This document shows positions 5,757-43,768 of a DNA stretch of 64,000 bases, piece after piece; position 1 is the stretch's first letter, and each line of letters opens with the position of its first letter. The stretch is from Trichoplax sp. H2. Its lineage: Eukaryota. The stretch covers positions 62,001 to 126,000 of the forward strand of contig NOWV01000123.1 in the NCBI GenBank assembly GCA_003344405.1, read 5' to 3'. The translations under genes and the position numbers were made by a program. The notes under the pieces are model-generated. The model was not told the origin of the DNA, searched no databases, and saw only the letters and a program-made list of their open reading frames with translations.

Positions 5757-6899
5757 TTATCCATGATAACTAGCAACGGTTCGTCGACTCTCTATAACAG
5801 TTATTGTAGTAGAATTATTACTGCGGATTGATTCGGCCTTATTAATTACGGTCTTAGTTATAAGAACACAACAACAACATTGAAGGAAGTTGGTCAATTT
5901 TTGGGAATATAACTTTGCAAAGATGATATAAATGGTAGGATGGATAGCTGGACTAAGGTAAAAGAATATCATCATAATGGGTGATGTATCTTGCCATAAT
6001 GCTGCCCTAACAAATGCTAAGGATAAGAGATCGCTTATCAAAGCAATTAAACCTGGTATCCATGACAGTAGCTGGATAAGCATCATACAACTAGTTAACC
6101 AAACTATTTGCATCTCATATTGACGTCGACGCAAATGCTGATAGATTGGAGGACCGCGTAAAAAGATGATGCTATAAAGCAAAATAATAGCCAAAAACAT
6201 GATTAAAAGTATACCAATAACAGTCCATATAATCACTTTTAATATTAAATCTGTATGATGGCCAATGTAACACAGGTTTTGCAATATGTGGCCGAGCTGT
6301 TTAGAATTTCCATTCGGTAACATTAAGAAACGTGTGCTATATGTCAACGTCATCACAAATCCAAACAACCAACAGCTTAACATCATGATATGAGCTACTT
6401 TGAAAGTGATTCTATTCTTGCGTTTAGGATAACAAACACAAATAGTTCGATCGATGGCCATAACTAAGGAAATCATCACTGATGCGGTTAAGGATATCAT
6501 TGAAAAAAAACGCGCTATCGTACACGTTGAATTAATTACTGCTTCAATAGCTTGAGTTTTACTTAGTGTTAAGTTATCATGCTTTGATTGTCCTAGAGCA
6601 GAATAAGCTGTATCATAATTATTAATGAGGTATAAATCAGTATTAGCAATCATAAATAAATAAATTGCGCCAGACATATTGGCCAGGCACAAATTGATCA
6701 AGAAAATTTGTGGGATTCGTAGAAATGTTTCATCAATGCGATAGTGCTGTGGGTGAATTTTTCGTGGCAGCAACTTAATTATCGTCAGTTTAAATGCCAA
6801 CAAATATGCATTACCTAAAATGCCCATAATACTTAGTGCCCATGTAAGAGTGCGTATTACAGTTAATTGGACATTTGAGGTACTCGTTTGATCCAACAT
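5757..6899 (-). CDS. Intronless class A (rhodopsin-like) GPCR, LGR/RXFP-like 7TM core without an LRR ectodomain
   Basis: ORF 5757..6944; first ATG at 6899 gives 380 aa. Seven hydrophobic segments: TM1 GILGN; TM2 FLINLCLANMSGAIYLFMIANTDLY (resembles the LGR-type NLAxADxxMGxYLxxIAxxD); TM3 CTIARFFSMISLTASV..AIDRTICVCYP; TM6 SWIP; TM7 HPTIY. Cys cluster in the C-terminal tail. Confidence 0.9.
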   Translation of the reverse strand: MLDQTSTSNVQLTVIRTLTWALSIMGILGNAYLLAFKLTIIKLLPRKIHPQHYRIDETFLRIPQIFLINLCLANMSGAIYLFMIANTDLYLINNYDTAYSALGQSKHDNLTLSKTQAIEAVINSTCTIARFFSMISLTASVMISLVMAIDRTICVCYPKRKNRITFKVAHIMMLSCWLFGFVMTLTYSTRFLMLPNGNSKQLGHILQNLCYIGHHTDLILKVIIWTVIGILLIMFLAIILLYSIIFLRGPPIYQHLRRRQYEMQIVWLTSCMMLIQLLSWIPGLIALISDLLSLAFVRAALWQDTSPIMMIFFYLSPAIHPTIYIIFAKLYSQKLTNFLQCCCCVLITKTVINKAESIRSNNSTTITVIESRRTVASYHG

Positions 6900-9800
6900 G
6901 ATTGCAATAGAAGCGATTTTCAATTCAACTTTTAAAATATCCACAAAATAGAAAGTTACATAGGAATACTCAGGTTGAAAGAATTTCCAACGATGAATAT
7001 TGTCAGGCTACACCTCAAATGACGATAAGTTTTACTAGCAATACCAGAGTTTAGGTGAAATTTATTGTTATGAGCATTGCTCGTGGCTAGATGCTAACAT
7101 AAAGCGTAAAGATGGAAGTTAAATTGTACTATCTTATCTATCAGAATGATCATTAGATAATTATATCTCTGTCTATAATATTTCCTATTGTATCTTGGGA
7201 TACTTATCTATCGTCGTCACTTCCATATCATTGTTTTGCTTGTTTACTCGAATGAGATATTATCCAAGCATAACTCCCGGTCCGCTCCCTTTCATCTTCT
7301 GCATACCATTATCGGATTGTAAGGCTAAAGACATTAAGATGAGAAAACGAATTTTAAGCCATCCTTTTCATTGATAATATCCGTGTAATGCTTTTACATC
7401 TAATCTTTTGTAAATCATAAACCAAGGCCAACAGTAGATTAAACGAAAGCATAATACCAAAATTCAATGATGATGAAACCTATTGTCTAGATTTGCAGAC
7501 TTGATTGTAATCAATTTTCGTCTCAAAGTATGGGAAATTATTGAATACAACAGAAGTTGGAAATAAAATATTAAGCTATTGTATAGTTATTCTAATGTAC
7601 CTGAAGCTGAAGTTATCGTGACCATATTGTTTGAATCTTAATAGTTCTACTGCTGTACTACCGTTAGAAGCAAAATTTGATATGCATGTTCCTATATTTA
7701 AATCAGGAATAGAAAAGGACGAAAGAAATGCTTCTTTAAGATGATTTTAGACGTTAAAAGTCTAAAATATTTTAGCAGACATCAATCAGAGTTAAATGAA
7801 GTTTAGCAGATTGTCTCGATCTTTAGTGGTTAAATGTTGTTTCATAATCATTTAAGTATTAATAAAGTTCTTAACTTTAAATATTACTGATTTATTCAGA
7901 GACAAGTTTCCATGGAAAAACAACTAAAGAATCAAGTAGATACGGTTATACCATTATTTTCTTTTAAATTAGCCTACAATAAAAGTCACTACTACAGAAG
8001 GATTGTTTAATTAAAGCTAAGTTTTACGTGTATGTTGATTTAACAATGGCATTTTGCAGGATGTAAACAACGATAGTTATGGCAACGACGAAATATAAGC
8101 AAAAATTGACCTTAATCATCACATACTGAGTACCTTAATAAGTATTATTTGTATGACTATGAAATATATTTTTAGTTGCCATATGGATTACTCCAGGAAT
8201 ACATAAGTGATAAATAATTATGTAGCATAGATGTGGAAGGACGGTATTCTTCGCCTATAAGTATATATAATACAATTTAACAGGCGCGAAACATATTCTC
8301 TTAGCATGGTATTAACGTTAAAGTTGCAAATGTTTGCAATATTTACATAAAGAGTGGTTATAGGTAAAGAATAGAGGCGGGAAGTATAGATTGGCGAAGC
8401 TTTTAAAATAATTATCTTACGTTAGTACTTGCAGTTAACCAGATATAAAGCACTATTGCTGATTACTAATTGACAATTTATTATCAATATTGATCTGCAG
8501 ATTTATTATTATCATTTGAAATATTTATTCGCTTTAATCAATCTCTAGCCATTTCTTTTTGGCTCTCTTATCTTTCTCGCTAATATATTTTTTATGATAG
8601 TAAATATTTTAGATCTTCCATTAGTTCAATTCTAAGTAAATACAGTCATTGCATAGGATAGATTCAGATCATAATTAATAGGTATCACGATCGGTATACG
8701 ATCGATAAGATTGTTCGTAAATTATCTATGCTTTACCAATGGATGACGTTAGTGTCGTTTATATATTTATCTTAAGATATATTTAGTAGCCCATAATTAT
8801 AGACTGAATGATAGATGCTATGCTAGAGTGCGAATGACTATATACAGTACAATAAGATGCTGAGCTACTAATAAGGTTAGAGGTAAAAATAGAACTGTAA
8901 ATCATATATTAGGATATGGTTAGCTCATTATACTTTAAGTGGTAGAAATAATGTCTTCAAAATCACTGTAATCGTTTCCATTTTGGAATAATGGTGGTTC
9001 GCTGTAAAATAAAGTTACTAATAATAGCTTGATTAAATATAAAATAGGGTAAAATGTTGCTATGCTGATTGTAGCTGCGAAGGCTGCGGAGAGTATAAAA
9101 CAGGCGACATTAGATTATCTATTAGTTCTTTCTAGGAGTCTTTCAGTAGTTATATTCGGCTAGAGTAGAGTTGTGTGTATCTAATCTTAGCATTAGATCT
9201 AATAGAGTTCTAATTTTCTAGAAATTTTGAATTTTAGTGATTGGGTTTTATCACGGAGGGTTTACCTTATTTTTCTACTATCTAAATTTATCTGACGAAA
9301 TAAAACGTGTATCATATCTTTGCTTTCTTCTCAATTCTTTTAATTAATCCTATTTAGAATTATTAGCTTAAAAAAGCTATAATGGAGGAGGTCGAATTCT
9401 CTATACTAGTATGCTAAGAAAAAATAATAAAATTTCCTGCTTCAACGTCTAAGTTAGTATTTGTTTTTGCCCTCCTATCAAATCATATTAAGGATTACGG
9501 AAAGCACGTTTATTAAACTCTTTTTATTACTGTTTTCTACTTTTCTTGATCTTTTTTAATATACAGTAGATTTGTGAATAGTATGATCATTGCATCAAGA
9601 AAACTAGTAATTGCTTGCTAGATTAAATGAGAGATAGCAGGATTACCTTAATGCATTCATTTTGGTATCATTCATTTATACCTTAATTAATACTGTATTG
9701 CTTTTGATTATCCCTTATTCCGTATTTCACAACTGTAGGTATTTATAGGATATCAATTCGATAGCTTAAGGTACAAGTGAATTTTAAGTTTTGCAGCAGA

Positions 9801-12800: not shown

Positions 12801-13987
12801 TTTATATTAGTTGATGTTTGAAATATCTCAAGAAAATAAGTTGGTTAGATCAGTATTACAATTGTTTACGTGTAGAGATTAATAAGGACTAATACAATTA
12901 TTAATTAATTGTTAATTTATTAGTTTTAATATTTTACTTTCATATATTAACTAATTTCTTAATTAAAAGAGTTGAATTACTGATTGGAAATCTTTAATCA
13001 AAAGATTATACCTCTTGGCAATTTTCTCTAACTGACTAGAAAAGAGCCAGAATTGTGTTTGCTACGTAGTAATTTGCACAAATTTACTAATTTGGTGTTG
13101 ATATGATATTACTTTACAAACTGTAACTGGTATAGTATTTTACCGTAAAACTGAACAATAAAAACTACAAAATTGATTACGTCAACGTAAAATTCGTTGA
13201 TTCTTTTCTCTTGTTTTGCCCGGCCGTTATATTTTATGTACCTAAAGATAATATAAGCTTCTTATTATTCATTCAGTGGCTGATCTTTAACTAGGCAAGT
13301 GGGGAATTTGCTGTCTTCACAGTGTTATAATCCTGTTGCTTTTTGCCAACGGATTGATAACAATGAATGTATGGATACGTGTATTTCAGCGGTAGGTAGT
13401 GTGAAATACTAGTATTTCAAAAGCTTTGAATAGCGTATTGAGTACATTTGCATGGACCTTATTTTTTTGCTGATGCCAGAATTTTTTCGAATTTAAACAG
13501 CATTCATTTGATTTTATACTTTTTCTATTGCCTATCTCGTAGCTTCTGCTTGATTTTAATTCATGATGAGTCCATTATCTAGCTGAAGGACATATGCAAT
13601 TTACCCTTAAAGGTAATGATTTGGTTAGATTGAAAAGAGGCAATCTTTTCTACTGTATTTGTTTCGAAATATGACACATATTCATCTGGATTTGCTAACT
13701 GCGAACTGCTATGCTCATCGTATCAGCTTGATTGAATTTAATATGCCGGCTTGCTGAGGTTGTTCAGAACCGCAAGTTCATAAGTAAACAATTTTATAAA
13801 ATATGAAATGTTTATAATAAATAACGGCGTAGAATAACGACCATAAGATAATTCTGATATGGTAAGACTAATCTTTTTATTATGGTAAAATCATACCGTT
13901 ATTCAATATATCAGCGTTAGATGTTGTAGACTATGTTGATATCATTTCTAAGCGTAAAACTTTTAAAAATCATACGGAATACACTTT

Positions 13988-14100
13988 TGACCTAGATGAA
14001 CATATTATTTGTCTGCACGATACAAATGTTCCAGCTTAATTTATCTGCGTCAGCAGTTTCTAGTTAAGCCATCATACAATATGAATTTCATCTGAGATCA
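13988..14100 (-). promoter_or_regulatory. SECIS element (type II) in the 3' UTR of the DEP-PH-GPx gene
   Basis: Minus strand reads ATGAT-GGCTTAACTAG-AAA-CTGC-TGAC-GCAG-ATAAATTAAGCT-GGAA. Elements: AUGAN at 14075-14071; helix II (GGCTTAA/TTAAGCT); unpaired AAA at 14059-14057; apical mini-helix CTGC/GCAG; NGAN at 14032-14029. Lower helix TGATCTCAGATGAA..CATATTGT pairs with ATAATATG-TTCATCTAGGTCA. It lies about 160 nt downstream of the stop codon. Confidence 0.85.
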
Positions 14101-14233
14101 TATCAAGCATTAGACGGTATGATTTTAATACGTTGAGAAAGCTGATTACATGCTACTTCATTTTTCTAATAAGAAAAAAATCTAGGTAAACACATCTGTC
14201 AAATTAAGCCAATGTTTAGCGATGTGCCGGCTA

Positions 14234-17200
14234 CTATTTCAGTAATTCTTTAATAGTTTCTTCGATTTCCTGTAACAGTCATGTTATTGAAAAAGTTAAC
14301 TACAGTATATACATTGCAGAGACGAAAACGAGAAATTTAATTCTATTATTACAATAAATTAACTATTAATTAAAGTTATTGTATTTTTGATGCTTACTCA
14401 TATTTAAACAAGCAAACAGATTTATGAAGGGATTATATTTACTCACCAATGGCGCAACTGTTGGTGAGTATCGTTGAACCGGTACGCCCTCTTTATTGCA
14501 GAGAAATTTACTAAAATTCCATTTAATAAAATTTCCTAATGTCCCTGGTAAACGAGATTTCAAATATTTATACAGAGGAAGAGCCTCTGATCCATTGACT
14601 TTAATTTTACTGAAGAGCTGGAATTCAGCGTTGAAATTTTTTTCTGCAAATTCTTTTATTTCTGCGTTAGACTTAGGTTCCTGATGAAATTATTAATGCA
14701 ACAGTTATCCAATATTGCAATGTAATACGAATCGCAATATAATTTAAATATCTATTTCAATGTTACGAATGATTGATTGTACGAAGACGAGGTTAGGGCT
14801 GACAATGAGTACATTTAAGCTAATGACATAATCGACATCACTAAATCAATTTAAGGGATATTTTAATCAGTTCAGTGAAAATCTACTTCAAGTCAGGTAC
14901 GATAGCAGCGAATGTAACATATGACTGTGCCTAGCATAGTACCAGGCATAGCATTAGTATCTTCGTATCTATAGTTTTACTAGAGCCAATGAGACTTATC
15001 AATTATAATTATTCTTAATGGATGCAATCATTAGCTTTAGTAATTCATACACATTGCGGTTAGTTCTATAGTATATACTTTTATAATTAAAAGGACTATG
15101 GTTGGCTGTGTCATATCAAACTAACATAACGTACAACATTTTGGAAGTAGTGAGGTTAATGTTTTCGGATGATTTCTGAAAAGTTACTAATTTGGCGCTT
15201 TAATACAGTACTATATGCTTAATTAATTCTACCAGGATTGACTTACTTGATTTCCGAACTGGTTACAAGGGAAGCCCAGTATACGGAGTCCAGACTTTGC
15301 ATACAGCACGTGCAGTTGCTGCAGTTGAGTGTAGTTCTTTTCCGTTAGCCCTCAAAAAGACGCTACATTCACGATTAGCGTTACATATCCTCTACATTGA
15401 AAATTAAAGCTCTAAATCAATACAAATCATGATACGTAAGTGATAATGTCATACAATCTTTTGCTCAATATACGTACTTATACTTCTCCAAGCTAATTTC
15501 ATCACCGTCGATGGTATTGGCTTTAAATGGGTAAATATTTGGGGACTTCCCGATCTCTTCATTGATTTCCTATATTAGGGATAAGGGCATACCACTCATA
15601 ATTAATTAATTGTTTATTAAGAAATGAATCAATTAATTACCAGTTTCAATAAAAGTAATTATATTGTTAATAATTATAAGTTAGCCTTATAAAAAGTATT
15701 TTAACATTTAATTTCATCATTTCTAGAAAAATAAAAGACTACTTACTTCTTTACTTCTACCTATTTTTACACCCATTGCTTCTAATTTCTTCATCCAAGC
15801 TAGCTGATCATTTTCATTTGGCACTAATAGCATCATATCTATTATAACAATAATGCATATATAATGCATAAATGAGTTACGCACAAAATTTAATCTACTA
15901 GCGTTCATTACCTTAATCGATTTTATGATCAGGCAATAATATGTGCAGTTGTAACGTATTGAATACGTATTTATACTCAACGTATAGTATTACAGTATAC
16001 TAGCGCAAACGCCATATACATACTGCTAATTCGCTTTCCGTTTTCAACATTACCTTGGTACTGACTTCCTTCATCGAATGTAATTTCTATGGCAGTGTCA
16101 TCATTACTAGTTACTGAAGCAACGGTCATTTCTTTCAGAGGAAATGCCCGCTTCGGATACGGGTCCTAATCCAAAGTTTTAAGATATTCAGTATCTGTAC
16201 AATAATCTCATGCTAATTTGTCTAGTAGTATATCATGGTATCTTACCAATTCTGATCCATATTTGAAAAGAAATTCCTGAGATGGAGCGACAACATAAAA
16301 AGATCTTGAGTTCATAAACATGCCTTTTCGTTCCATATACATACTGTAAGATCCACATTCTCCGGTGACGGTTTTAGCAGATGGCCCCGTATTACTATTC
16401 GGAGGGTCTGGATATGGATACATTAAACAAAATTTTAGTGTGGAGTATTGTATTAGCTATTCAGGATAACAGTAAAATCATGATATCAATCTTACATTAA
16501 TACATAATTTTACAATTTACTTACCATCTTCTTTAAAGCGATAAAATAAGTAGCCGTCTTTGAAATTGTGATCATCGACGACATGATGGATAATACCAGT
16601 GTCTAAGATTTGCTGAAATACATTGATGGCAAATGAACAATCAATTTCATAGGTAGGCATATTTTATAGAGTAAAATTATTAGCACAATTAATTGGTAGC
16701 ACAATTATTTTATAAATTTTAAGAGTAGCGTACAAATACGAATAAAAAGAATAGTAAATCCATTATTTTGTTGCATAGATTTGTAATGTCTTTGTGTTGT
16801 AATTTTTCCTACCTGGCCAACTTTGATAGCTTCTTTGCGGTCATCCGCCAAGTTTTCTTTAACAAACCAATCAACTGCTTCACTACCTATTTTCATCGAT
16901 TGAAGGTTTTATAGTTAACAGTAACCATAATATATTGTATGTATCTATTACGAGAACATTTTATTGTTCAAAGATTATGTTACTGTATACGTTGCAATGA
17001 TACAAAAGAGTTCTGTCTGATTGCGAAAGATATTTCCGTAATAATTCACCTATAAAACATTTGGCGTATGTTCTGAAATGGTAGATCCTGTCTTTGATAG
17101 AAATACCACTGGATCCCCTAAGACGTTTAGCAATGTCTTCAGCCTGTATGCATTCATTGTAAAAAATTTTGAACGTGATTATGTTCGTTAGTACTTAAAT

Positions 17201-17344
17201 TAATAATATATATTAGTGACGATACAGTACTAAGCAATCGTCATTTGATGTAAAAATGGATTACTATAATAGTTATAGATTACAAATTGTACTTAATTAG
17301 CGGCTGAATACCTGTTCAACACTTAAGGTACAGGATGAAGACAT
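14234..17344 (-). CDS. Selenoprotein: DEP domain + PH domain + GPx4-type (phospholipid hydroperoxide) glutathione peroxidase, about 386 aa, Sec TGA at 15354-15352
   Basis: Exons (minus strand): 17344-17312, 17143-17050, 16886-16813, 16612-16525, 16407-16247, 16165-16054, 15838-15747, 15569-15478, 15391-15247, 14680-14447, 14269-14234. All introns are GT-AG and phase-compatible; total 1161 nt. [112 protein letters not shown]. GPx: [43 protein letters not shown]. Confidence 0.9.
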
Positions 17345-18820
17345 TTTGCTAATCTTTCTTACAGACGAAGAAAGGAAACGCAACAATTTGACAGAAGATG
17401 AGATTTTCTAATCTCTAGTACCGTTTTAAGGAGAATGTTAAAATATAAGTTAGTTATACGCATGAGTATTTCTATGTAAAAATTTACCCTGTACTGTAAT
17501 GTAACTGCAAAACATTTACGAATTAATCAATTATTTAATATGGTAATTATGCAGTATTATAATTCATAATCATATATATATATACACTGTACATAGAATA
17601 TATATAATCGATCTTGCAGATAATGTTGTTAATATTACTAATGACCTCTTTCGCGAGTCATGACCCCTAGAGACCTGCCCACCAAGAAGTCATGATGACG
17701 ACTAGGTACTGTACATTTAGTGTACCAGTGATACGAGTAGAACACAGCACTCTAAGTACGCTACCGTACAGTATATAGGACTGTCCTGTATTGGGGCTAT
17801 ATAGCACCGCAACGTCTGTCGCACAAAGCATACGGTATATCAATGCAGGACCATACAATGATCATGCGTTCTCGTGTAATATTAGAATTAGGGAAAATAA
17901 AATAAAATAAATTAAATTAAGATTAAAAATTTGATTTTAAATCGATAGTGTATGCCCTTAATTTAGGTTCAGCGTGTACTTCATTATGGGGCTACTAAGA
18001 AAGGAATAGTGATAGTATCACTGCCGTACATTTGATTTGACCTAAAATTTTTGTGCTAGCTACTAATGACTTGTATGAGGTTAAAACTTGTTCCAAGAAA
18101 ATCGCTGACTCGTGTCCTTTCTACCATACAATCGTGCTAGCATGTCAGTATTTCATTTCGTATTTTAGGTTGCAATATTTCTTATGGTATTAAGTTCCAA
18201 TAGCCACTTGTGAAATATGACAGAATGTTGTATTATAAACACTACATTACTATACAGTATAAGAATGAGTAGAATGGATAATAGTCACAACACTACAGTA
18301 CTGTACTCCAGTATTGTTTTTACATCACTCTTAACACTCTTAAGAAGGTTTATATAATTGGTAACTCTTTTTAAGATTCGTAGATACATATACTGTACTG
18401 TATACTAGTGTAATTACTAGCGAAGGCAATTCGCTCTGTGAAAACCAAAGTGCAGGTTTCGTCGTGGGTTATTAAGGTAAAATACTTTTAACGGTCCCTG
18501 GTTTTGCATGTGATTATTATTCTTAGGTTAAATAATAATTAATCATTATTTATAATTATTAGTACTTACTGCACAAAAGTGTTTATGTTGATTTCCAAGC
18601 TTCTAATCTGCTTGTCTGAAAGCCACGACACTGGTTTCAATCCTGAAATATCAGTGCGACACGCTTAAAAGATTCTGACGTTAGTATGCGCATGTGTTCA
18701 CGGTATGGTTTTGCACAGTATGATGAACTGTAAATTACAGTACAGTCTCTGCAATTTAAAGTGTCACCTCAGTCCGGTTTGCACTGTGGCACTGTGGCAG
18801 TTCTGTTCAAACGACTTTAG

Positions 18821-19021
18821 GTACTGTACTGTACACTGTACTGTACTGTACTGTACAGTGCACAGTACAGCGGTAGCCGTAAAGTACAGTACAGTACTGT
18901 ACAGTACTTGCAAAGACAACCACTACCGACTGCCGATCAGTGATTAATACAGTACTGTACTGTACTATTAAGGGTACTATTTAACTGGCGTGGTGAGCCT
19001 TATACTGTACTGTACACTGTA
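18821..19021. repeat. TACAG/CTGTA (GTAC-rich) low-complexity cluster
   Basis: Dense runs such as gtactgtactgtacactgtactgtactgtactgtacagtgcacagtacag. Confidence 0.85.
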
Positions 19022-19216
19022 CAGTAGTCCCAGCCATAATAACCTCTATTACTCAGATTCTCATGCGTAAATAGCTTAAACGATGATACATTATTGTAAG
19101 AGTCTATAACTCAAATTTCATGCGATTATTCAAAGAGTAAGAGAATAATGTATCATCGTTTAAGCTATTTACGCTGAGTATCTGAGTAATCGGGGTTATT
19201 ATGGCTGGGCCTACTG
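19022..19216. mobile_element. MITE-like fold-back element with about 74-bp terminal inverted repeats
   Basis: Left arm 19022-19095 (cagtagtcccagccataataacc..gatacattatt) is the near-perfect reverse complement of right arm 19144-19216 (aataatgtatc..ggctgggcctactg). CAGT termini, flanked by TA on the left and CA on the right, reminiscent of Tc1/mariner-type ends. Confidence 0.7.
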
Positions 19217-19222
19217 CACAGT

Positions 19223-19272
19223 ACAGTTTTCAAACAGCAGTGCTGTACTGTACGCTGCTGTTTGAAAACTGT
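19223..19272. repeat. Short perfect inverted repeat (18-bp arms)
   Basis: acagttttcaaacagcag - 14 nt - ctgctgtttgaaaactgt. Confidence 0.85.
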
Positions 19273-19298
19273 TCAGGCATACAGTAAAGTAGTGTAGC

Positions 19299-19484
19299 TT
19301 AAGGATGTGCAAAGTCAACCCGAAGCCGTATTTAAACCCGGACTCGAGAGCGGGGTTCGGGTTAAGAATTTCTGTTATGATACAGTGGTCATAGCGATTT
19401 GACTCATTTCGGGTTAGAATATCAACAATCGGATCGGGTTTTATCGGGTTCGGGCTGCCTTTTCACTCTATTGCACAACACTGG
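19299..19484. mobile_element. Possible non-autonomous hAT-like element
   Basis: Degenerate termini (taaggatgtgcaa ... ttgcacaacactg), repeated AACCCG motifs on the left and CGGGTT motifs on the right, and a 7/8 flanking direct repeat agtgtagc (19291-19298) / actgtagc (19485-19492). Confidence 0.45.
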
Positions 19485-19770
19485 ACTGTAGCCCTTAGTT
19501 AGGTCTTTAAATTTTTAAGGTATTTACTTTAAATTTGAGTGAAATTTTACGAATACAGATCACTACAACCTTGAGCAATGGCACTTAGTATTTTATTATT
19601 ATTTTTACTGCATTACTGAGTTTTTTTATTTCTTTGAAATTTCGAATACAAACTATCAGTCACTGGTACGTGTACGGTCGGTTCAACCAGTATACAGTAC
19701 TAGTCATGCTGAATAGTGGTCTTTTTAGAAGGAAGATGCGAAACACTAGTGTCTGGTAGAGTAGGGTAGA

Positions 19771-19925
19771 GTACCGTACAGTGTACAGTACTGTACAGTA
19801 TTCACTAGTCACTACTCAGTGCTAGAGTCATATGAGTCCTTCTCTCTTTCTGTACCGTGCCGCAATACGGTACTGTATTGTACTGTACAAGTGTACATAC
19901 TGTACTGTACAGTACAATGTACAGT
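19771..19925. repeat. TACAG/CTGTA low-complexity cluster
   Basis: Repeated gtacagtgtacagtactgtacag-type units. Confidence 0.8.
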
Positions 19926-21604
19926 TGGCGTCGTTCCCATCGAATAGCTGCATAATTATAACTTATGGTTTAATATGGCGACGTCCTGTAGATGTACTGT
20001 ACGTTTATACAGAAGTTATTGGATTTGGTTGACTACAATTGTTATACATTGTAAATTGTCAGATGTGTTAGGACAATCATTCTCTGAGAGCCAAAAGTGC
20101 TTACTTGTTTGATAATGTAGTGTAGTACAGTATTAATGTTTTATTATTCTTGGAATTGCCGCAAGCAAAATTAAAACAATACTGTAGAGAAAACAAGTTT
20201 AAGAATAGTCTGTCTACCGCTACAATTGACAGATTGAGACAGCAAGACGGTTACCATGCTAATATGATAATACAAGTAGTGTATACTGTATGTTACTTTA
20301 AGTGCATATGCGCCACCTTTTCGGTGTAGCATTATTCGTATTAATTTGTTCGTTTGCATTCATAATTTTACATTGGACAGTATATGCTTAAAATACGAGT
20401 AATTTAGTTTTGGACGAAATGTAAAATGAAAGGTTGCATTATTTTAGTTGTACACTTGATGAGGGTATTGTGTCCAATGTCTCATCAGGCACTTCTCGAG
20501 GTTAAGAAGTCCAGGATACTAGACAAGAAGCTAAACAATTGGTACTGTGTGATGGAGTATTAGTGTCTGTGACTCTGTAGTATCCTCGGCCGAAAGTCTG
20601 AGTAATTGATAAAGGATTAATCTCCATATGCGTACTCTGTGCTGAGCTTGATAGCGTCAAAGTAGGTCAAAAAAGCCGGAGTATAGTGCTGATTAAATAT
20701 TATTAACTTCGATATGCTATTATCGTAAGATATGATCAATTCCACTATACTGGACACATACAGTATATGATGTAGGACACTGGCAGATTCTATGTGCGGT
20801 AGCGTAGGGCTGTTGAGAAACATTGTTAGATAACCGTTTGTTTAAATATTTTGCCTGAAGGTGCACAAAGTCTGAAGGAAAATAGTAATTCATTCAGAGA
20901 CCCTAATTACCCCCCTAATCATCATCAGCTGTATCACTGTTAGCCAAGGATTGATGTACTTGTATAGATATTTGAAAGGCGTTTATCTTTTAATTATAAC
21001 TATTCCATTCGAAAGTGGTGTAATATTACTTACTATCAGTCTATCACCGATATAATGTTTAAATATATATAGGAGTTTTCGGTGCAAAACTCAATCTTTC
21101 CCTCTAGTGAAAGATCATTTAGTTTTCACTATATTTTGCAATCTAGTACTTGACTGTCATTACGAAGGGCTGCCCTGGCTTCGTAATAATACTGTAATAA
21201 GAATAATATTATTATATAATGATGCAAAAAGGTAGTTTTAGCCATTTAGGCAGAATCCAAGCATGCATGAATTAAAGTGAGCAAATTTAAGTCAGTACGA
21301 CAGTAAGTTTTCAAAAGTGCCTGAACCAATATTGTAGGAAGCTGGACACTTCGTTCTAGAAAAGGTTAGGCATTAAAAAAAAATGTTCGCTTTGTGTCGA
21401 ACCGTAAATAAATAAGACTACATTTGCCTTCGGCAAGTTATTATAAGATTTCCCAAGCATGTATACGAAAGTAGCGTATTGAATAGTGCACTGCTATGCA
21501 GTACACTGGTATGTACAGTAAATGTTTACTAATGTCGTTGGCTGTTTACAAACCAGTAGTCTTGGTGTCTCCTCATTTAAACCGTACGGCTTACGATTAT
21601 GATT

Positions 21605-22860: not shown

Positions 22861-30968
<8,108 letters not shown>

Positions 30969-43225: not shown

Positions 43226-43768
43226 TGAGATACACAATGAGATAAGAATTGAGGAATGCATGTATTAAAGACGTGCACTACCACTATTTTATAAAGTGCT
43301 GTATGGTGTATTTATTTTGTTTTGAGATTGCCAAAGTCCTTCTCGAGGTGCTTTGAATACTGAAAAGACCTATCAATTTCATACCAGTGTGTATAACCAT
43401 TACCTACGGGTACATATAATAATATTTATTTAATATGATGTTACAGTGTTAAATACTGTATTACAGTAGAAATAACTATGTTAGGATAATTCTGTTAGAC
43501 TATCCTTATTTAGTTAACTTCTAATTTGGATATACTGNNNNNNNNNNNNNNNNNNNNTGAGATACACAATGAGATAAGAATTGAGGAATGCATGTATTAA
43601 AGACGTGCACTACCACTATTTTATAAAGTGCTGTATGGTGTATTTATTTTGTTTTGAGATTGCCAAAATCCTTCTCGAGGTGCTTTGAATACTGAAATGA
43701 CCTATCAATTTCATACCAGTGTGTATAACCATTACCTACGGGTACATATAATAATATTTATTTAATAT
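43226..43768. other. Assembly gap (20 N, 43538-43557) flanked by a 211-bp near-identical duplication
   Basis: 43226-43436 matches 43558-43768 with two substitutions seen (ccaaagtcc/ccaaaatcc; gaaaagacc/gaaatgacc). Confidence 0.9.

Follow-up and report, generated by a model that had tools for sequence, protein, structure and literature searches.

Does the in-frame TGA at 15354-15352, on the minus strand of a 64,000-nt stretch of the Trichoplax sp. H2 genome (contig NOWV01000123.1, positions 62,001 to 126,000; hereafter the window), end a reading frame or encode selenocysteine (Sec) at the catalytic centre of a glutathione peroxidase (GPx)? The codon lies within GTG AAT GTA GCG TCT TTT TGA GGG CTA ACG (15381-15343), and a first-pass annotation of the window, made from the letters, had placed it on the catalytic Sec/Cys position of the GPx motif and preferred recoding to a pseudogene. 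We conclude, with a probability of roughly 93%, that the TGA encodes selenocysteine, in a gene of the GPX4 type that is expressed, and we infer that Sec is inserted at it. The gene occupies 17344-14234 of the minus strand, has 11 exons from the ATG at 17344 to the TAG at 14236-14234 with GT-AG introns throughout, and encodes a product of 386 residues with the domain order DEP-PH-GPX4-type. The TGA is codon 262 and the sole in-frame stop ahead of the terminal TAG in the spliced frame of 387 codons.

Twenty-four public sequencing runs were found, 20 of them with part of the stretch, and four runs from four studies and under two organism labels were compared: X19 (RNA-Seq on record), X15 and X16 (RNA by guess) and X3 (DNA). 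The codon is covered in all four runs and none of them has a differing letter, so the search of raw reads for TGC or TGT that the first-pass annotation had proposed leaves the TGA in place. Read with the standard code, exon 9 falls into a 40-aa piece and a piece of <20 aa, and with the TGA read through it forms a single open frame of 60 aa; because the standard code splits the exon at the TGA, open reading frame (ORF) listings miss it, which accounts for its absence from the ORF track remarked on at the first pass. Trp is encoded three times in the gene, always by TGG, the terminal stop is TAG, and no second in-frame TGA occurs in the 386 codons; given the Trp codons and the TAG stop, TGA is no general sense codon here.

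All ten introns are seen as spliced joints (CT..AC, that is, GT-AG on the minus strand), nine of the ten in X19 and nine of the ten in X16, and the contigs of X15 and X3 have no joints and run across the introns like genomic DNA. One 1189-nt contig of X16 (record 10) extends from exon 2 to exon 11; in X19, a first contig holds exons 1-6 and then eight loose letters agreeing with the beginning of exon 7, and a second takes in exons 7 to 11 and the 3' untranslated region (UTR) as far as 13761. X16 is probably RNA because of its spliced contig. The limits 15391-15247 proposed earlier for the exon with the TGA are those of the RNA joints 15391|15478 and 14679|15246 (cut +1), found in both X19 and X16, and the frame, which had been followed through FPCNQFGNQ, continues to the GT donor and then into exon 10 with EP... 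and KWNF. Exon 7 is connected to the first GPx exon by the joint 15568|15746 (cut +1), again in X19 and X16, and because exon 8 has no in-frame ATG and an in-frame TAG lies directly upstream of it in the intron, the peroxidase is not translatable alone from exon 8. We also considered the ATG ATG in exon 7 as an internal start for a stand-alone GPx; no contig begins there, though transcript starts are not visible in contigs, and X16 has the joint between exons 6 and 7. Upstream of the start in exon 1, there is no ATG within 90 nt, and an in-frame TAG stands 22 codons before it.

The public protein model of the gene (P0001, 'Glutathione peroxidase [Trichoplax sp. H2]', 357 aa) has a 248-residue prefix and an 89-residue suffix in common with our gene model, and between them it carries 20 residues versus the 49 from the RNA-supported exon 9. 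These 20 residues come from another frame of exon 9, reached via an internal AG and an internal GT, and no such joint occurs among the RNA contig joints. The public model is therefore wrong in exon 9: spliced via these internal sites into another frame, it sidesteps the TGA and loses the catalytic centre. Models from corals (P0002, P0003, P0162), sponge (P0179, P0180) and Acanthamoeba (P0265) are broken at the same place, in differing ways.

The peroxidase domain was matched by the Pfam profile GSHPx (PF00255, cut-off 27 bits), to which exon 9 scores 68.9 bits over profile positions 21-67 and exon 10 scores 42.8 bits over the adjoining positions 68-108. The 12 best PDB matches of exon 9 comprise GPX4 entries, GPX4 designs and a chain labelled simply glutathione peroxidase, and they place codon 262 at the catalytic Cys/Sec column of the NVAS-x-[U/C]-G motif, where the first-pass annotation had put it. 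For both exon 9 and exon 10, GPX4/GPx4-type chains matched over the whole length and without gaps, and GPX1 matched only residues 49-73 of exon 10; by sequence comparison, the domain belongs to the GPX4-type (monomeric) subfamily, being nearest to GPX4 and without the subunit-interface loop of GPX1-3. The catalytic tetrad of GPx enzymes consists of Sec/Cys, Gln, Trp and Asn, and in the alignment to GPX4 the same columns are occupied by U262, the Q of GNQEP and the WN of KWNF; the gapless alignment to GPX4-type structures thus bears out the earlier observation that the Gln and Trp-Asn are intact. In the accessible text of PMC8614756, the GPx signatures are given as an NVA-[STA]-x-[CU]-G-[LT]-T block, LAFPCNQF and WNF[ST]KF, with 'some differences' allowed. 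By that text, all three motifs are present, one substitution being noted ahead of the last, which reads WNFSKF, and three positions of the first block (Y, T, F) fall outside the sets listed. Reduction of phospholipid hydroperoxides, or peroxidase activity more generally, would be the predicted activity of the domain.

A length-matched search with P0001 returned 12 proteins, including those of the corals Stylophora pistillata and Desmophyllum pertusum and unnamed transcript ORFs. The S. pistillata and D. pertusum proteins are the same three-domain protein with 40-41% identity over 99% of the query. In the alignment from this search, both coral genome models are without the region of the Sec column, one transcript ORF has W there and three ORFs end one residue before it. 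The Pocillopora damicornis model (P0162) excises nine residues around the Sec column, the coral 383-aa transcript ORFs P0169 and P0173 have W at it while P0165 is the same protein ending at the column, and the two models from the sponge Geodia barretti (P0179/P0180) both end before it. These proteins came from cluster look-ups, which also added Paramuricea clavata (P0067), Montipora foliosa, M. capricornis, Arcella intermedia and Acanthamoeba castellanii to the family. A profile search with ten members that end at the column gave 68 proteins, of which 34 were examined (every one that covered 84% or more of the query, and one further protein with a GSHPx hit); the other 34, with a DEP domain only, 21-40% cover and no GSHPx, were dropped. 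In the examined set of 34, 31 relatives break off directly behind NVA-[S/C]-x, exactly one residue short of the column, one has W and two coral genome models are without the region; Cys occurs in 0/34, and full-length Cys forms (~380 aa) would fit within the searched window of 138-492 aa. The comparison with orthologues recommended in the first-pass annotation, made here at the protein level, thus gives a stop or W at the column. In all eight scanned relatives that stop at the column, the GSHPx match ends at profile position 31-32.

The conservation of the protein was assessed against coral P0169, to which identity is 50.5% in DEP (93 columns), 27.5% in PH (120), 51.2% in the part of GPx before Sec (43) and 64.8% in the part after it (122); for P0173, identity after Sec is 66.4%. 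As judged from these alignments between placozoan and corals, the region after the TGA is the most constrained part of the protein, the opposite of the relaxed selection that had been named as grounds for rejecting recoding. In a phmmer search of 1.84 billion representatives, the best 150 matches are mostly multi-DEP proteins, with eight of the 150 being single-stretch DEP-PH-GPx stubs, and a metagenome scan for DNA of the relative P0005 gave only one weak DEP-only locus (L001, 46% over 35 residues).

The 3'UTR contains an element that is likely a selenocysteine insertion sequence (SECIS). Its match to Rfam SECIS_1 has an E-value of 0.97 when 5 kb are searched and of 0.092 for the UTR by itself, and is the best of 4227 families in the UTR when all are counted. 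When the layout rules of form-2 SECIS elements are applied, it shows an AUGA core (14075-14072), a 7-bp helix II, AAA in the internal loop 12 nt past the core, and a mini-stem of 4 bp closed by a 4-nt loop; GGA stands on the 3' side. RNA contigs of both X19 and X16 span the element, which is on the correct strand, and the three runs that cover it have no variant within it, with four substitutions and one insertion in the surrounding UTR. At gathering thresholds, Rfam gave no match in the whole window, and ARAGORN found no tRNA in it. A match to the Lysine riboswitch family at 16056-16178 (15.7 bits, E-value 0.89) lies in coding exon 6 and was judged to be chance.

In the mechanism that we favour, the gene is transcribed and spliced into one mRNA encoding the 386-residue DEP-PH-GPx protein, in which codon 262 would supply the catalytic residue of the GPx domain. 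By analogy with textbook selenoproteins, the SECIS in the 3'UTR would recruit SBP2, eEFSec and the Sec-tRNA, so that Sec would be inserted instead of a stop, and the selenol, activated by the Gln, Trp and Asn residues, would reduce hydroperoxides.

Several points weigh against Sec insertion. Its support lies at the level of DNA, RNA and sequence comparison and not at that of protein. The SECIS_1 score of 21.9 bits is below the Rfam gathering score of 35, and the lower helix of the element is weak. A plain minimum free energy fold of the region is no better than shuffles (z -0.38); because SECIS elements are built on non-Watson-Crick pairs, this result is expected, and we used the test neither way. 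X16 is labelled RNA by guess, and X19 alone is RNA on record. The relatives are known from protein ends, and their stop is taken to be TGA because W is printed at the column in some ORFs (P0004, P0169, P0173). The runs compared have five synonymous and six non-synonymous variant sites in the coding sequence, with no stop and no frameshift, and four of the six non-synonymous sites lie after the UGA, numbers that are too small for a selection test within the genus.

The alternative that best survives these data, improbable as we consider it, is that the UGA is a true stop, so that the gene would yield only a DEP-PH protein of 261 residues that ends in a GPx stub of 43 residues, and exons 9b-11 would go untranslated. 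It would agree with the relatives that are called as ORFs ending there (31/34), with the standard gene callers and NCBI models, which treat the codon as a stop, and with the SECIS score under the Rfam cut-off. However, the region after the UGA is the best conserved against the corals (64.8-66.4% over 122 columns), and the frame is open across two further introns, with the Gln and Trp-Asn catalytic columns. Moreover, between a stop here and the real end there would be 375 nt with two exon junctions, and yet the spliced contigs are deep. A stop that far upstream of exon junctions normally marks an mRNA for decay, and partial termination at the UGA beside Sec insertion is expected of any selenoprotein.

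It is very improbable that the TGA is decoded as Trp or Cys, whether through near-cognate read-through or because of a variant code. The W at the column in some automatic ORF calls from coral transcripts would suit Trp, but is most simply explained by a gene caller using a table with TGA as W on unnamed contigs, and the same coral protein is also called as ending at the column (P0165). The exclusive use of TGG for Trp, the lack of any second in-frame TGA and the presence of a SECIS-like element also speak against such decoding, and because the column is that of the redox-active residue, Trp there would be inactive. Still less credible is a decaying pseudogene whose TGA arose when a former Cys codon was disabled by mutation: the TGA is indeed one base from TGT or TGC, but the gene is expressed, all its introns are correctly spliced, no second stop or frameshift is present, and the same stop is found in sponge, corals and amoebae with no Cys among the relatives, which, together with the conservation after the TGA, upholds the earlier preference for recoding. 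Least of all do we credit an assembly or sequencing error for TGC or TGT, in favour of which nothing was found, and which is excluded because none of the four runs, DNA and RNA, differs at the codon though the same runs have 15 single-base differences at other sites of the transcribed region.

With Sec as the preferred reading of codon 262, the remaining question is what precedes the peroxidase. The limits of the domains are about 1-95 for DEP, 110-210 for the PH fold and 220-386 for the GPX4-type monomeric GPx. The DEP domain (PF00610) was found in P0001 at residues 24-93 with 88.5 bits, above the cut-off of 32.7, and it is closest to the DEP domains of DEPTOR and P-Rex (relative P0031, E-value 8e-31; Foldseek match to the DEPTOR DEP with a root-mean-square deviation of 1.9 A). 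The PH profile (PF00169) gives 18.1 bits for the window's protein (E-value 0.004), below the cut-off of 25.1; among nine relatives scanned, eight pass (28.5-45.2 bits) and sponge P0180 has no match at an E-value of 0.01. The PH fold is present in an AlphaFold2 model computed from a 39-row family alignment (overall mean predicted local distance difference test score, pLDDT, 80.9), where it consists of seven strands and a C-terminal helix (residues 196-208). The mean pLDDT of ten-residue blocks is 80-98 over residues 11-250 and 80-96 over 101-210, and Foldseek aligned the PH region with the phosphoinositide-binding PH domains of DAPP1, ARAP3, dynamin and Slm1 at TM scores of 0.73-0.80, normalised to the target. 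W202, in the PH helix encoded by exon 7, is nearly invariant in the family alignment. The GPx part of the model was not used, as the block mean pLDDT drops to 39-59 over residues 251-300; in this part P0001 is mis-spliced, and most alignment rows end at the Sec column.

Acidic membrane lipids and receptor tails are ligands of DEP domains, and phosphoinositides are those of PH domains. Because of this affinity for membrane lipids, the N-terminal module probably addresses the peroxidase to membranes; it may bring a lipid-hydroperoxide-reducing enzyme to particular membranes or signalling complexes, and membrane targeting is the function that we favour, at about even odds. A more doubtful option is that the GPx could serve a DEP-linked signalling partner as peroxide sensor or relay, much like yeast Gpx3/Orp1, a GPx that acts as a peroxide sensor. 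Otherwise, the fusion would have a function other than targeting or sensing.

Differences between strains were seen at several places in the gene. The non-synonymous ones cluster in the PH-GPx linker (exon 7, 15791 and 15805; K204E, Q199L) and near the C-terminus (exon 10, 14457-14460; T371R, V372T), and a further one is K281E. The X19 contigs break inside exon 7, where the linker variants sit. In two introns, at 15665-15685 and 16705-16722, about 20 letters match record 19 of X3 (6280 nt) and loose ends of X16 and then diverge; these matches are probably short repeats common to another locus. The features of the gene are collected in the table.

Table. Positions in the window of the exons, untranslated regions and recoding features of the DEP-PH-GPX4-type gene, with the evidence for each.
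Feature	Positions	Strand	Evidence
5'UTR, to limit of RNA contig cover	17345..17414	-	X19 record 15 starts at 17414
Exon 1 coding, ATG 17344-17342	17312..17344	-	Gene model; joint 17142|17311 (cut +1), X19
Exon 2, start of DEP	17050..17143	-	Pfam DEP profile 1-19; joints in X19 and X16
Exon 3, middle of DEP	16813..16886	-	Pfam DEP profile 21-44; joints 16884|17048 (cut +2), 16612|16813
Exon 4, end of DEP	16525..16612	-	Pfam DEP profile 46-72, 30 bits; joints
Exon 5, linker and first PH strands	16247..16407	-	100% identical to P0001; model strands E117-146; joints
Exon 6, PH strands	16054..16165	-	Joints 16164|16246 (cut +1), 15838|16054; structure model
Exon 7, last PH strand, C-terminal PH helix (conserved Trp) and linker	15747..15838	-	Helix H196-208
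Exon 8, first GPx exon	15478..15569	-	Joints both sides; no in-frame ATG; in-frame TAG directly upstream in intron
Exon 9, Sec exon (NVASF-U-GLT ... FPCNQFGNQ)	15247..15391	-	GSHPx 68.9 bits; AG acceptor, GT donor; joints
UGA codon 262, read as Sec (probable)	15352..15354	-	Reads, GPX4 column, conservation, relatives
Exon 10, GPx (EP..., KWNFSKF)	14447..14680	-	GSHPx profile 68-108; ungapped 77-residue GPx4-type match; joints
Exon 11 coding, TAG 14236-14234	14234..14269	-	Gene model; joint 14268|14446 (cut +1)
3'UTR, to limit of RNA contig cover, 473 nt	13761..14233	-	X19 record 13, unbroken from 14268 to 13761
SECIS-like element, form 2	14019..14083	-	Rfam SECIS_1 21.9 bits; folds; 150 nt after TAG, 533 nt after UGA

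Elsewhere in the window, a 416-aa stop-to-stop frame at 5757-7007 (minus strand) matches the rhodopsin-family profile 7tm_1 with 50.2 bits and is a probable single-exon G-protein-coupled receptor gene, on the same strand and ~7 kb downstream of the GPx gene. On the plus strand, 28906-30968 holds adjacent open frames of 352 and 316 aa, the second of which matches the ZSWIM4-8 C-terminal domain with 222.9 bits; the two are probably large exons of a ZSWIM-type gene. The upstream intergenic region around 18800-19950, viewed on the minus strand, has many short GTACAGTAC-like repeats and inverted copies and may be either low-complexity satellite DNA or a mobile element that has decayed, and a run of 20 N at 43538-43557 is an assembly gap.

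The recoding itself is ordinary, because Sec in GPx is textbook knowledge and two such genes have already been counted for Trichoplax adhaerens, for which the accessible text of PMC3473315 (2012) gives 28 selenoproteins, including two Gpx and selenophosphate synthetase (Sps). The main text of that paper is without the words DEP, pleckstrin, fusion and fused; the accessible text of PMC8614756 has no Trichoplax, Placozoa, pleckstrin or fused, the word starts in 'DEP' being those of other words, and that of PMC9925728 has no DEP domain, PH domain or pleckstrin. By full-text search, we found no DEP-GPx or DEP-PH-GPx selenoprotein described in open-access papers and preprints, which does not prove absence, and the pairing of DEP and GPx domains is visible in automatic database annotation. 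What this analysis adds is a gene model put right in exon 9 and the recognition of a DEP-(PH/DEP)-GPX4 fusion family, conserved and apparently Sec-only, in Amoebozoa and non-bilaterian animals; there are no bilaterians among the named family members.

All 34 relatives appear, from their protein sequences, to keep Sec, with none switched to Cys. To our knowledge, retention of Sec throughout is unusual for GPx4-type enzymes outside vertebrates, and the lack of Cys therefore suggests strong selection for selenium chemistry in the fusion context. We put forward tentatively, as a possibility that we do not ourselves favour, that these proteins form an old Sec-dependent DEP(+PH/+DEP)-GPX4 family that predates animals (Amoebozoa, sponge, placozoan and anthozoans) and is membrane-addressed or coupled to signalling, and that might be undescribed because annotation pipelines break it at the UGA. 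If this were true, the DEP-PH module would place a lipid-hydroperoxide reductase on membranes rich in phosphoinositides or phosphatidic acid, as an early membrane-addressed form of the anti-ferroptosis enzyme, or else would link a GPx that senses peroxide to DEP-type signalling partners. Cells rely on GPX4 as their central guard against ferroptosis, and a fusion of this ancestor-like, naturally membrane-addressed kind would offer a testable handle on the targeting of lipid-peroxide repair before bilaterians.

Among known proteins, close counterparts are those of corals, octocoral and sponge (P0002, P0003, P0162, P0187 from Montipora, P0179/P0180 and P0067), which have the same domain order with 41-46% identity over the whole length, Pfam matches to DEP, PH and GSHPx, and a stop or W at the same column. 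They differ in that each either ends at the column or has had the Sec region excised, and none is annotated with Sec, their records being named glutathione peroxidase, PH domain-containing protein, DEPTOR, PIKfyve-like or mechanosensitive ion channel; the PH domain of Trichoplax is the more divergent (18.1 versus 28-45 bits). The proteins of Acanthamoeba castellanii (P0265, XP_004341938.1) and Arcella intermedia (P0207) likewise have DEP N-terminal to a GPx4-type domain. In Acanthamoeba, the transcript ORF P0264 ends one residue before the Sec column, P0258 resumes just after it and the genome model excises the column, whereas a second DEP, judged by reading the sequence, stands where the animals have PH (DEP-DEP-GPx). 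The DEP and PH folds are shared with DEPTOR, P-Rex1/2 and Epac2 (DEP) and with DAPP1, ARAP3, dynamin and Slm1 (PH), but these are signalling scaffolds or exchange factors without a redox domain, and binding of lipids or partners by the Trichoplax module is putative.

Mammalian GPX4 (PDB 7l8m, 2obi, 6hn3) is the best match of the peroxidase domain, with E-values of 4e-17 for exon 9 and ~1e-20 for exon 10. The two have in common the Sec/Cys column in NVAS-x-U-G, the FPCNQFG-x-QEP and KWNF motifs, the lack of a GPX1-type oligomerisation loop, and the UGA; GPX4 also relies on a SECIS in its 3'UTR, of which the SECIS-like element here is the likely counterpart. GPX4 is a single-domain enzyme of ~170 residues, some isoforms of which have N-terminal targeting peptides; the Trichoplax GPx, in contrast, lacks its own start codon and comes after a DEP-PH module of 218 residues encoded by one and the same mRNA.

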